DNA from: Candidatus Edwardsbacteria bacterium
GTDB lineage: Bacteria; Edwardsbacteria; AC1; JBFLXN01
Direction of reading: 5' to 3'
Assembly: GCA_040755715.1 (NCBI GenBank)
Contig: JBFLXN010000014.1
Location: forward strand, 1 to 12,346
DNA length: 12,346 nucleotides
Below are positions 8,931 to 10,895 of this stretch, piece by piece (position 1 is the stretch's first letter; every line of letters starts with the position of its first letter). A program made the translations under genes and the position numbers. Below the pieces are notes generated by a model. It made no database searches, had not been told where the DNA came from, and saw nothing but the letters and a program-made list of their open reading frames with translations.

Positions 8931-10895
8931 TTATCCATATATTTCCTTAGAAAAATCCTTTAATCGGTCAATACCTTTGATCTGATAAGGGAAAAGCGGC
9001 AGCTGACCAATTTGATATTGCGAAGACCTTTCCCTCTCTATTTCCTGGATAATCTTAATCTGCTCACCTCTTTTTGACTCGCAAAAATTACATCTAGTTT
9101 TCGGAAGAATCATATTAACCAGAATATAATGAGAGGGGATGTTAAGTCGCTTAAGGTTCTCAAGGAGGCCGTCCATCTCACTCTTGCCCATAGCCTCTGG
9201 AATACCTACAACCACAAATTGACACCTCGCCGGATCTGTGAGAATCTCCTGTATTTTTCTCACCTTCTTAGAAAACTCTATCATCTCTTCAGCCTGTTTG
9301 GCCAATCGTACTATCCCCTTATATTTTATAAGTAATTTAAATATTGCATTTAGCCACTCCCTGGCAACCTGAGGCATCTCTAGAAACCGCAATAGGTGTC
9401 CTGTAGCTGCTGAATCTAAGATATATATATCAAATTTTCCTCCATCTATAAATTCCACCACCTTAGCTAAAGCCATAATCTCATCCAAACCGGGAGGAGT
9501 AAGTGAGATAAGTTCCTCTAAAATCTCCCTATCGAACTTAACATCCACTCCACCTCCGATAAATTTACTAAATACCTCGCTTATTTGGTCTTTATAATCC
9601 TTTTTAAAATTCTCAAGCAACTTCAAAGCATCTATCTCCAGGGCAAATAGATTATTGGGGACAGTCTCCTTCGGGGACAGTCCCCCTATCTGAGTGAGAT
9701 TATCTCCAATAGATAGACCAAAACTATCGGATAGCGAATGGGCAGGGTCGGTAGAAAAGACTAAGACTTTTTTAGAGGGGTATTTTTTGGCCATACTAAG
9801 TGCAGTGGCTGAAGCTATGGATGTTTTACCCACCCCACCTTTTCCCCCAAATATATATAATATAATGCCTTTCTCTATTAATTGAGGCAATTTAATAATA
9901 GAGAAAATCTTAGACTTGAAATCAAAAGGTTTCTTTCCAATGGGAAGGCGATGTGGCTTCTCTTCAAATAAAACCTGGGCATATTCCTTTAGTCGATCCA
10001 TCCCTCTGATTTGATATGGAAATATCGGTATCTGATGAAGTTCGAGATTTGCGAATTTTTGCCTGATTATATCTAATTCTTTCTTTTGTTCTTTCTCTTC
10101 CTTAGAACAAAAGGGACACCTGTTTTGACTACTTTTAATTTGATTGACGATAATAGATTTCACTGAAATTCCATATCCTTTTAATATCGCCAACAACCTT
10201 TCTGTCTCTTCTATAGCCAAGGTCTCGGGTTTAGTGACAGGTATAAATTCTGTTGAATCGCGGTTCTTTAGTAACCGACTTACTCTATCCACGTCGCTTT
10301 TCACCATCTCTAAAAATTCATCAGCGTCGTCTTTTTTGTATTTGCCAGCAAAATGGCTGGCTAAAAATCTATGCTTAGATTGCATCAAATCTAAAACTTC
10401 GACCCACTTTTTCATCTGAAGGGGTAAACCTAAAAGCCTTATGGTATGTCCTGTAGGTGCGGTGTCCAAGATGATTAAATCGTATTTCTCTTCTCTTAAG
10501 ATATTAGCTATTTTTATAACCGCCATTATCTCATCTAACCCTGGAATAGAAAGGGAAAAGAAATTCTCTATATCTTGCCTGTCGAAATAAGTTCCTCTCT
10601 CAACGATCTTTTTCATCACCAAATCATATTTCTTTTTAAAAAGAGAGGCCTCTTCCTCAGCTTTTATTTCTAAAGCCCAAAGATTGTTTAAATCTTTTAT
10701 GGGTGTAATGGTATTACCAACAGTATAGCCCAAACTATCACCCACTGAATGAGCAGGGTCACAGGATACAATCAAAATCCTCTGCTTGGGATAATGTTGG
10801 GCTAAATAAAGGCCAGTAGCAGTCGCTGATGTAGTTTTTCCGCAACCCCCCTTTCCACCAAAGATTATTAGACGCCGCTTCTCGCTGATTTTCAT
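8931..10895 (-). CDS. ArsA/Get3-family P-loop ATPase, internally duplicated (two complete ArsA-type halves in one 654-aa polypeptide)
   Basis: Half 1 has IIFGGKGGCGKTTSATA, SCDPAHSVGDS and ILDTAPTGHTIRLL. Half 2 has YIFGGKGGVGKTSIASA, STDPAHSLSDS and ILDSAATGHLLRFL. These are the P-loop, A-loop and DTAPTGHT signatures of ArsA/Get3. Each half ends with a Cys pair (CPFC, CNFC). ATG at 10895. Confidence 0.9.
   Translation of the reverse strand: MKISEKRRLIIFGGKGGCGKTTSATATGLYLAQHYPKQRILIVSCDPAHSVGDSLGYTVGNTITPIKDLNNLWALEIKAEEEASLFKKKYDLVMKKIVERGTYFDRQDIENFFSLSIPGLDEIMAVIKIANILREEKYDLIILDTAPTGHTIRLLGLPLQMKKWVEVLDLMQSKHRFLASHFAGKYKKDDADEFLEMVKSDVDRVSRLLKNRDSTEFIPVTKPETLAIEETERLLAILKGYGISVKSIIVNQIKSSQNRCPFCSKEEKEQKKELDIIRQKFANLELHQIPIFPYQIRGMDRLKEYAQVLFEEKPHRLPIGKKPFDFKSKIFSIIKLPQLIEKGIILYIFGGKGGVGKTSIASATALSMAKKYPSKKVLVFSTDPAHSLSDSFGLSIGDNLTQIGGLSPKETVPNNLFALEIDALKLLENFKKDYKDQISEVFSKFIGGGVDVKFDREILEELISLTPPGLDEIMALAKVVEFIDGGKFDIYILDSAATGHLLRFLEMPQVAREWLNAIFKLLIKYKGIVRLAKQAEEMIEFSKKVRKIQEILTDPARCQFVVVGIPEAMGKSEMDGLLENLKRLNIPSHYILVNMILPKTRCNFCESKRGEQIKIIQEIERERSSQYQIGQLPLFPYQIKGIDRLKDFSKEIYG
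9657..9686. repeat. GC-rich element GGGGACAGTCTCCTTCGGGGACAGTCCCCC inside the ArsA coding sequence
   Basis: GGGGACAGTC occurs twice in tandem. The second copy lies within GGGGAC-A-GTCCCC, which is palindromic around its central A. The island is GC-rich in an AT-rich gene and encodes GLSPKETVP within the second ArsA half. Confidence 0.4.

Follow-up and report, generated by a model that had tools for sequence, protein, structure and literature searches.

A tandem ArsA/Get3-type ATPase in a gas-vesicle gene cluster

The DNA analyzed here, 12,346 nucleotides (nt) of contig JBFLXN010000014.1 from a Candidatus Edwardsbacteria bacterium (hereafter the window, at its full length), is taken up entirely by one gas-vesicle (gvp) gene cluster on the minus strand. 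Within this cluster, at positions 8931-10895, lies an open reading frame (ORF) for an ATPase of the ArsA/Get3 type. The Pfam model ArsA_ATPase (PF02374) matches the protein in two stretches (464.7 bits against a cut-off of 24.3; E value, 1.7e-139), and the superfamily model TIGR00345 gives 463 bits (cut-off, 135) for the whole protein and 245 and 223 bits for its halves alone. The N-terminal and C-terminal halves are 37% identical across 316 residues (E value, 2e-65). The ORF, the two Pfam matches and the related halves agree with the original prediction, made from the same DNA, of an internally duplicated ArsA/Get3-type ATPase inside a gvp operon. We are highly confident that the protein is a member of the Get3/ArsA (SIMIBI) family dedicated to gas vesicles, in which two Get3-like domains are fused as a pseudo-dimer.

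Translation shows the P-loop, DPAHS and DTAPTGH or DSAATGH motifs in both halves, as had been claimed for them (Table 1). The earlier assignment of DPAHS to the A-loop was mistaken; the motif aligns with TDPAHN of yeast Get3, which contains D57 and is conventionally named switch I. An A-loop-like sequence, PxFPYQI(R/K)G, is found elsewhere in both halves, at residues 290 and 633. The original prediction also described cysteine motifs of two kinds, of which the CxxC pair in each half is present (once per half) and the CxC motif is absent from the ATPase sequence. Across 58 homologues with at least 50% identity, the P-loops, the switch I Asp, the Asp, Gly and His of switch II and the four CxxC cysteines are all invariant or at least 90% conserved. 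Loss of the catalytic Asp or of the P-loop in one half, which had been named as a mark of a degenerate pseudo-dimer, was not seen. Judged from these conserved catalytic signatures, neither half is a degenerate pseudo-site.

An AlphaFold2 model of the ATPase has a mean predicted local distance difference test (pLDDT) score of 81.7 and a predicted template modeling (pTM) score of 0.79. In Foldseek searches, the whole model matches closed-state ArsA best, with query-normalized template modeling scores (TMq) of 0.69-0.71. Taken singly, the halves match Get3 with target-normalized scores (TMt) of 0.80-0.85 and 30-33% identity, whereas their identity to ArsA pumps is 20-24%.

The gene sits between gvpO and a gvpG-like gene. 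The spacers, 42 nt from the gvpO stop to the ATPase start and 29 nt from the ATPase stop to the gvpG-like start, have exactly the predicted values. No minus-strand terminator-like sites were found in 7400-12346, which lends weak support to a presumed co-transcription of the ATPase with gvpG, gvpO and the gvpG-like gene.

Table 1. Features of the tandem ATPase, of its cluster and of related loci (aa, amino acids; HMM, hidden Markov model)
Feature	Position	Strand	Basis or remark
Tandem ATPase gene	8931..10895	-	654-aa ORF, ATG start
N-terminal ATPase domain, aa 1-319	9939..10895	-	Domain HMM envelope and model secondary structure
Inter-domain linker, aa 320-336	9888..9938	-	Predicted disordered, pLDDT <50
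C-terminal ATPase domain, aa 337-654, and stop codon	8931..9887	-	Model and alignment to N domain
N-domain P-loop GGKGGCGKT (deviant Walker A), aa 13-21	10833..10859	-	Translation; invariant in 58 homologues
N-domain switch I DPAHS, aa 46-50; D46 equivalent to yeast Get3 D57	10746..10760	-	Alignment, translation
N-domain switch II DTAPTGH, aa 144-150	10446..10466	-	Translation, conservation
N-domain CxxC (CPFC), C260/C263	10107..10118	-	Aligned to MjGet3, MtGet3 and yeast Get3 C285/C288; invariant in 58 homologues
C-domain P-loop GGKGGVGKT, aa 350-358	9822..9848	-	Translation, conservation
C-domain switch I DPAHS, aa 383-387; D383	9735..9749	-	Alignment, translation, conservation
C-domain switch II variant DSAATGH, aa 494-500	9396..9416	-	Translation, conservation; D494, G499 and H500 invariant
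C-domain CxxC (CNFC), C602/C605	9081..9092	-	Aligned to MjGet3, MtGet3 and Giardia Get3; invariant in 58 homologues
GvpF/L, C-terminal end	12158-12346	-	Upstream-most gene of the window
GIY-YIG nuclease-domain gene, 98 aa	11725-12021	-	Between GvpF/L and GvpG
gvpG	11444..11728	-	Pfam GvpG 6.8e-24
Small double-zinc-ribbon protein	11233..11439	-	Between gvpG and gvpO; Pfam DZR 4.3e-9; kept in relatives
gvpO	10938..11207	-	Directly upstream of the ATPase; Pfam GvpO 1.6e-18; position kept in relatives
gvpG-like gene, 191 aa	8326..8901	-	Directly downstream of the ATPase; Pfam GvpG 1.9e-9, aa 102-167
DnaJ-type CXXCXGXG zinc-finger protein	7833-8225	-	
GvpJ-like shell-family protein, 116 aa, with C-terminal CxxC...CxxC zinc ribbon	7469..7819	-	Pfam Gas_vesicle 9.4e-17; best NCBIfam GvpJ
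Hsp20	6833-7420	-	
GvpK	6519-6836	-	
GvpF/L	5758-6549	-	
GvpM-like shell-family protein, 357 aa, with long C-terminal extension	4599..5672	-	Pfam Gas_vesicle 4.5e-17; best NCBIfam GvpM
Hsp70	2836-4704	-	Mechanical ORF, 622 aa
Four further ORFs, downstream end	331-2858		
Upstream cluster continuation in relatives	L095:452-5978; L006:2139-6241; upstream flanks of L096 and L097		
Second tandem paralogue in relatives	L006:20473+; L007:14290+; L095:21735+; L096:20541+; L097:14121-16427		

Linkage to gas-vesicle genes across genomes

The neighborhoods of homologues were surveyed, as had been suggested as a check, in 80 ArsA/Get3-family genomic loci drawn with a generic P-loop pattern; these loci are a sample and not a census. 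L numbers designate genomic loci throughout. Metagenomes were scanned with the single ATPase protein, which gave 7 loci. Linkage to gvp genes in the sample of 80 is consistent among the closest homologues, being found in 14 of the 15 loci most similar to the query and in none of the other 65. At 241 bits or more against the query, every fetched locus is gvp-linked save one Lyngbya tandem protein, and below 241 bits none is. Those with gvp linkage belong to Chloroflexota, Acidobacteriota, Myxococcota, Gemmatimonadota, Rokubacteria, Planctomycetota and Chlorobiota; relatives from metagenomes bear the labels Omnitrophica, Actinomycetota, Zixibacteria and Euphemobacter. The gene order GvpF/L-GvpG-(Zn ribbon-GvpO)-ATPase is repeated in Chloroflexota, Acidobacteriota, Myxococcota, Planctomycetota and others. 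All close relatives for which enough flanking DNA is available share the synteny of the window.

Get3-like features of both halves

Ranked against sequences in the PDB, the whole ATPase is closest to Chlamydomonas ARSA1 (221 bits), followed by archaeal Get3 (165-169 bits), yeast Get3 (~145 bits) and E. coli ArsA (131 bits). The order is unchanged for each half separately; for the N half, the scores are 219 bits for ARSA1, 171 for M. jannaschii Get3 (MjGet3), 147 for yeast Get3 and 129 for E. coli ArsA. In the alignments, the CxxC motifs of both halves share their columns with the zinc-binding CxxC of Get3 from M. jannaschii, M. thermautotrophicus (MtGet3), yeast (C285/C288) and Giardia. This motif is found in archaeal and eukaryotic Get3 and in no pump. 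Of the 19 gvp-linked tandem proteins, 15 carry CxxC in both halves; in one of them, from L009, the contig ends and the N half alone can be scored.

We compared the helical region that follows switch II (yeast residues 173-231), a stretch that includes the TRC40 insert. It spans 60 residues in the N half and 53 in the C half, as against 59-69 in Get3 and 46 (N) and 34 (C) in pumps. Met makes up 6.0% of the region in N halves of the window clade and 3.1% in C halves, compared with 8.8% in Get3 and ~1% in pumps. The yeast groove residues L183/L186/F190/I193/M200/L216/L219 correspond to M161/W164/L168/M171/L/L/V in the N half and to A511/W514/I518/L521/I/M/F in the C half. Both halves are thus hydrophobic at the groove positions; in pumps, positions 190 and 193 are S/G/N/T or fall in gaps. 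In yeast Get3, F190D/I193D is the standard mutant in which client binding is abolished, and Get3 accepts hairpin clients as well (PMC9123286). The resemblance to Get3 put forward in the original prediction is upheld, and made stronger than could be seen there, by the aligned CxxC, the Get3-like length of the helical region and the hydrophobic groove.

Among Get3/TRC40 structures (MjGet3, 3ug6; MtGet3, 3zq6; yeast, 2woj/4xtr), the likeness covers the P-loop, switches I and II, the CxxC, the helix 7-9 region and the hydrophobic groove positions. Unlike these proteins, which are homodimers of single-domain subunits, the window ATPase consists of fused domains that have diverged (37% identity). 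Further, Get3 delivers tail-anchored (TA) proteins to the membrane receptor Get1/2, whereas the presumed destination here is a protein shell; residues that bind Get1, Get2 and Get4 are absent from prokaryotic groups (Bodensohn et al., PMC6593721). ARSA1 of Chlamydomonas reinhardtii (5zme), the best PDB sequence match, is likewise a fused tandem protein of the Get3 type with long helical inserts, from the chloroplast, but it lacks CxxC in either half, is eukaryotic and targets chloroplast TA proteins. Its superposition on the model is poor (TMq, 0.59; root mean square deviation, 17) because the crystal form is open.

Comparison with arsenical pumps

The ATPase shares its two-domain architecture with the arsenite/antimonite-stimulated pump ATPase, true ArsA, and its full-length model fits the tandem pseudo-dimer fold of the closed-state E. 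coli (1f48) and L. ferriphilum (9nbo) enzymes best, these being the sole two-domain bacterial structures in the PDB. Against the ArsA equivalog model TIGR04291, however, it scores 223 bits, below the cut-off of 650, whereas the genuine pumps in our sample (L027, L028 and L036) score 816-918 bits. The metalloid-binding columns C113/C172/C422 hold Cys in every pump and G/K/G in the window ATPase in the domain alignment. Across 42 gvp-linked domains, these columns contain no Cys and are G/K(R)/G in nearly all, the C172 column being D, A or P in four acidobacterial-type C domains. No arsB, acr3, arsD, arsR or arsC family was found among the window ORFs or in the 10-kb flanks of relatives, so that the arsenic-resistance context for which the original prediction left room outside the window is absent within 10 kb on either side in the relatives. 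Pumps thus differ from the window ATPase in their metalloid triad, their shorter helical region and their genomic context as well as in overall sequence.

A neighbor-joining (NJ) tree with Kimura distances, 140 domains and 200 bootstraps gives the pump N domains and the pump C domains each a clade of their own with 100% support, and these clades exclude all gvp-linked domains. Of the two relations that the proposed phylogeny of the halves was to settle, separation from the pumps is therefore well supported and kinship with Get3 is not. Given a score below the equivalog cut-off, the missing metalloid cysteines and a neighborhood free of ars genes, we conclude that the protein is not an arsenical pump, a role that had already been judged unlikely; the chance that it is a true ArsA is as good as nil.

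Coexistence with GvpN

The original prediction cast the ATPase as a candidate functional stand-in for GvpN; on this reading, it would provide the ATPase activity for a gvp cluster without gvpN. There is indeed no gvpN in the 12.3-kb window, and in L011, L013-L015, L020, L024 and L043 the ArsA homologue is the sole cluster NTPase within 10 kb on either side. The window cannot itself show gvpN, as no more than 1.45 kb of it lies upstream of the ATPase. With the GvpN of L095 as query, we found a GvpN in the same metagenome-assembled genome (MEW6685010.1; 87% identity) on a 27,293-bp contig. The ATPase (MEW6684994.1) bears the same organism label and likewise lies on a 27,293-bp contig, 16 accessions from the GvpN, so that placement of both on one contig rests on organism label, contig size and accession spacing; synteny predicts ~14 genes between them.

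The relatives give the same picture. In L006 and L095, an AAA_5 protein of 305-309 residues passes the GvpN model TIGR02640 (345-353 bits; cut-off, 267) and is encoded ~9.5 kb upstream on the same strand. It is followed by a 6xTPR protein, small winged-helix-like ORFs, Hsp20, a CDC48-family double-AAA ATPase (952 bits with TIGR01243), a GvpF/L-J-domain fusion and two more GvpF/L genes. GvpN-like AAA_5 genes, recognized by Pfam or phmmer matches, are present in eight more loci (L088, L096, L097, L008, L010, L017, L018 and L025), and co-occurrence of the ArsA homologue with GvpN was already noted by Castillo & Saier (PMC2963123). Both proteins are ATPases encoded in gvp clusters, but they are products of separate genes of the same cluster with unrelated folds, AAA+ AAA_5 for GvpN and SIMIBI for the window ATPase; profile searches with the latter gave no AAA_5 or GvpN match. 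The presence of GvpN on the same contig refutes the stand-in reading at this locus, and we regard that reading as scarcely tenable. The cluster encodes a GvpN of its own; the ATPase acts beside GvpN and a CDC48-type AAA ATPase and does not replace them.

The loci in which the ArsA homologue is the sole NTPase are minimal clusters of an acidobacterial type, from Acidobacteriota, Rokubacteria, Myxococcota and Gemmatimonadota. Their gene order is GvpJ, GvpJ, PAS histidine kinase, response regulator, GvpF/L, GvpG, tandem ATPase, GvpJ-like, GvpF/L and GvpK, with no GvpN, CDC48, GvpO or Hsp70 within 10 kb on either side. A hidden AAA ATPase in the 2.1- to 2.6-kb gap of these clusters was considered and rejected, as the gap is filled by the histidine kinase and the response regulator.

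Relation to earlier descriptions

Two-domain ArsA homologues in gvp operons were described in Cyanobacteria, Bacteroidetes/Chlorobi, Acidobacteria and one delta-proteobacterium by Castillo & Saier (2010, PMC2963123), who reported that these homologues have no ars genes nearby and do not conserve C113/C172/C422, and who proposed that they energize a step of biogenesis distinct from that of GvpN. The window ATPase is of this type, being a two-domain protein in a gvp operon, with no ars genes and without the three cysteines. Clusters 4 and 6 of that study are similar in length (~640 residues), in their two domains and in their operons with gvpF/L, G, J, K, M, N, O and hsp20. The window cluster differs in being far more chaperone-rich (Hsp70, J-domain-GvpF/L fusion, CDC48 and TPR proteins), and the 2010 study noted neither the CxxC nor the Get3-type insert (PMC2963123).

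Separately, bacterial Get3 homologues of tandem form, in which each domain has a TRC40 insert and CxxC is present, have been called unique in all domains of life and of unclear function (Bodensohn et al. 2019, PMC6593721). The window ATPase shares this architecture, with its single two-domain chain, its insert in either domain and its CxxC. The set in that study, from Myxococcales, some Proteobacteria and Cyanobacteria (the last without CxxC), came with no analysis of genomic context and no link to gas vesicles (PMC6593721). Our literature search found no paper joining "gas vesicle" with "Get3," and the other matches that pair "gas vesicle" and "ArsA" are unrelated mentions. The association of gvp genes with ArsA homologues is therefore not new, having been published in 2010. 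Our contribution is to show that the 2010 and 2019 descriptions concern one protein family, that both halves keep the Get3 hallmarks throughout the gvp-linked clade, and that the tandem ATPase coexists with GvpN.

Neighboring genes and cluster variants

The window cluster is rich in chaperones, with Hsp70, a DnaJ-type zinc finger and two Hsp20-domain proteins (6833-7420 and 597-1598); in relatives, a J-domain is fused to GvpF/L (L095:5988-7040). In the eukaryotic pre-targeting relay for TA proteins, clients pass from Hsp70 to a TPR co-chaperone and then to Get3. The chaperone set of the cluster resembles this relay, by analogy only.

The GvpJ-like and GvpM-like proteins are the only members of the GvpA family seen; neither the window nor the 10-kb flanks of relatives yielded a canonical short GvpA. 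ORFs of 70-84 residues in relatives were weighed as divergent GvpA and rejected; they are winged-helix-like, with a weak TrmB match. The GvpM-like protein carries GRAM/PH-like repeats and a zinc ribbon. Its gene is overlapped by the mechanical Hsp70 ORF by 106 nt (4599-4704); on an identical Logan contig, Hsp70 is called at 588 residues, which gives a 4-nt overlap with the GvpM-like gene and an ATGA-type coupling. In the GvpG-like protein, the GvpG domain is preceded by a long extension at the N terminus in which the motif (I/K)P(L)VS(K/A) is repeated (AIPLVSKEIPLVSKPIPLVSA); the counterparts of this protein in relatives have 193-265 residues.

Upstream, the GIY-YIG gene looks like a recent insertion, because in L004 and L005, relatives with 84% identity, the GvpF/L and GvpG genes that flank it here overlap directly. 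Genes of the 23S_rRNA_IVP family occupy varying cluster positions in other relatives. At the downstream end of the window, the 88-residue ORF at 331-597 (-) and the partial ORF at the left edge (1-330, -; at least 99 residues) have no Pfam match. The 333-residue protein encoded at 597-1598 (-) has weak matches only, to Hsp20 in its C-terminal part and Vps36/GLUE-like in its N-terminal part.

Several relatives encode a second tandem ArsA/Get3 paralogue of 706-793 residues, with CxxC in both halves. It follows the first at a distance of 2-10 kb downstream, which is ~2.2 kb in L097 and ~8.5-10 kb in the other four loci. A TPR protein of 67-83 residues lies upstream of this paralogue in L095, L006 and L097 and is directly adjacent to it only in L095. 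The gvp clusters of Chlorobiaceae (L017:3741-5275 and L018:9451-10930) have a single-domain version of ~320 residues with SxxC instead of CxxC; its gene overlaps the upstream Hsp20 gene by 4-5 nt and is followed by CDC48. Get3d-type proteins have an alpha-crystallin domain fused to the ATPase (PMC6593721), and the Chlorobiaceae neighbors therefore present the Get3d pairing as adjacent genes.

Proposed role and alternatives

The explanation that we favor as a whole, a dedicated pseudo-dimeric Get3-like ATPase that chaperones hydrophobic clients, has in our estimate an even chance of being right. ATP binding at the two sites would close the pseudo-dimer, upon which the helical subdomains would form a hydrophobic groove. 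This groove could shield a transmembrane-like segment of a Gvp client, either the core of a GvpA/J/M-family protein or the helix at the N terminus of GvpG. Once ATP is hydrolyzed, the clamp would reopen and the client would be set free at the wall of the nascent gas vesicle. The four cysteines may form an intramolecular zinc clasp, the putative equivalent of the inter-subunit zinc site of Get3, and the Hsp70, J-domain, small heat shock and TPR proteins of the cluster may supply clients to the ATPase. The most hydrophobic 19-residue stretches of the candidate clients have Kyte-Doolittle means of 2.14 in the GvpM-like protein and 1.86 in the GvpJ-like protein; the values for GvpK and GvpG are 1.67 and 1.62. 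For the client-chaperone mechanism taken by itself, read from sequence features, our confidence is tentative and falls at or slightly short of an even chance.

Several points weigh against this explanation. To our knowledge, the model gvp clusters of Halobacterium, B. megaterium and Serratia build vesicles without such an ATPase, which would therefore be accessory. NJ support is 0-40% at the nodes that link the gvp-linked halves to archaeal and eukaryotic Get3. The insert of the C half is shorter than that of Get3 and, as its Met content shows, poorer in Met. Among gvp-linked proteins, those of L025, L013 and L016 have a lost or degenerate CxxC, and the Chlorobi forms with a single domain have SxxC in its place, so that these lineages can dispense with the zinc clasp. 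Finally, the TRC40 insert by itself is no predictor of TA-type client binding (Bodensohn et al., PMC6593721).

The main rival to the chaperone reading is a nucleotide-gated switch or scaffold, akin to the SIMIBI proteins MinD, ParA, NifH or SRP, that recruits and releases GvpF/L, GvpG or GvpO or positions vesicles and shields no client. SIMIBI proteins are a class of dimerization switches, and the ATPase has weaker Pfam matches to CbiA, ParA and AAA_31. Moreover, the gene strictly adjoins those for GvpG, GvpO and GvpF/L and not those for shell proteins, and the insert is no proof of a TA-type function (Bodensohn et al., PMC6593721). Yet both halves keep the extended helical subdomain and the hydrophobic character of the groove, neither of which a pure switch would need, and the match to ArsA_ATPase (465 bits) far exceeds those to ParA and CbiA (44-57 bits). 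We consider such a switch unlikely, though it is the alternative to be taken most seriously.

The Get3-like features would also suit a housekeeping factor that targets TA proteins to the cytoplasmic membrane and lies in the gvp cluster by chance. This is quite improbable given that gvp linkage is kept in at least 8 phylum-level lineages and tracks similarity to the query, and that several clusters contain a second paralogue of their own. The conserved CxxC pairs bring to mind a redox-activated, ATP-independent holdase like oxidized yeast Get3. In the redox switch of yeast Get3, a CxC motif accompanies the CxxC, and the window ATPase has no CxC; with both ATP sites strictly conserved as well, a holdase of this kind is more improbable still.

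A broader form of the chaperone reading is that gvp-linked tandem ATPases are a membrane-free bacterial counterpart of the GET (guided entry of TA proteins) pathway, with an ATP-gated, zinc-clasped clamp for the transmembrane-like core of GvpA/J/M-family shell proteins or for the GvpG helix, handover from Hsp70, J-domain and TPR proteins and insertion into the shell, and that they are the sole energy source for assembly in the acidobacterial-type clusters. We hold this to be doubtful, if somewhat less so than the switch.

Implications for gas-vesicle biology

How extremely hydrophobic shell proteins are kept soluble and inserted into the wall is a poorly understood step, and one that limits the use of gas vesicles as acoustic reporters. 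Uniting the 2010 and 2019 descriptions yields a concrete candidate for a dedicated gas-vesicle chaperone or insertase, and its sequence features make a chaperone for Gvp proteins plausible. Should that reading prove false, the ATPase would still be a reliable genomic marker of a widespread type of gvp cluster. If it is true, Get3-type client handling extends from lipid membranes to a protein shell, and heterologous production of gas vesicles could improve.

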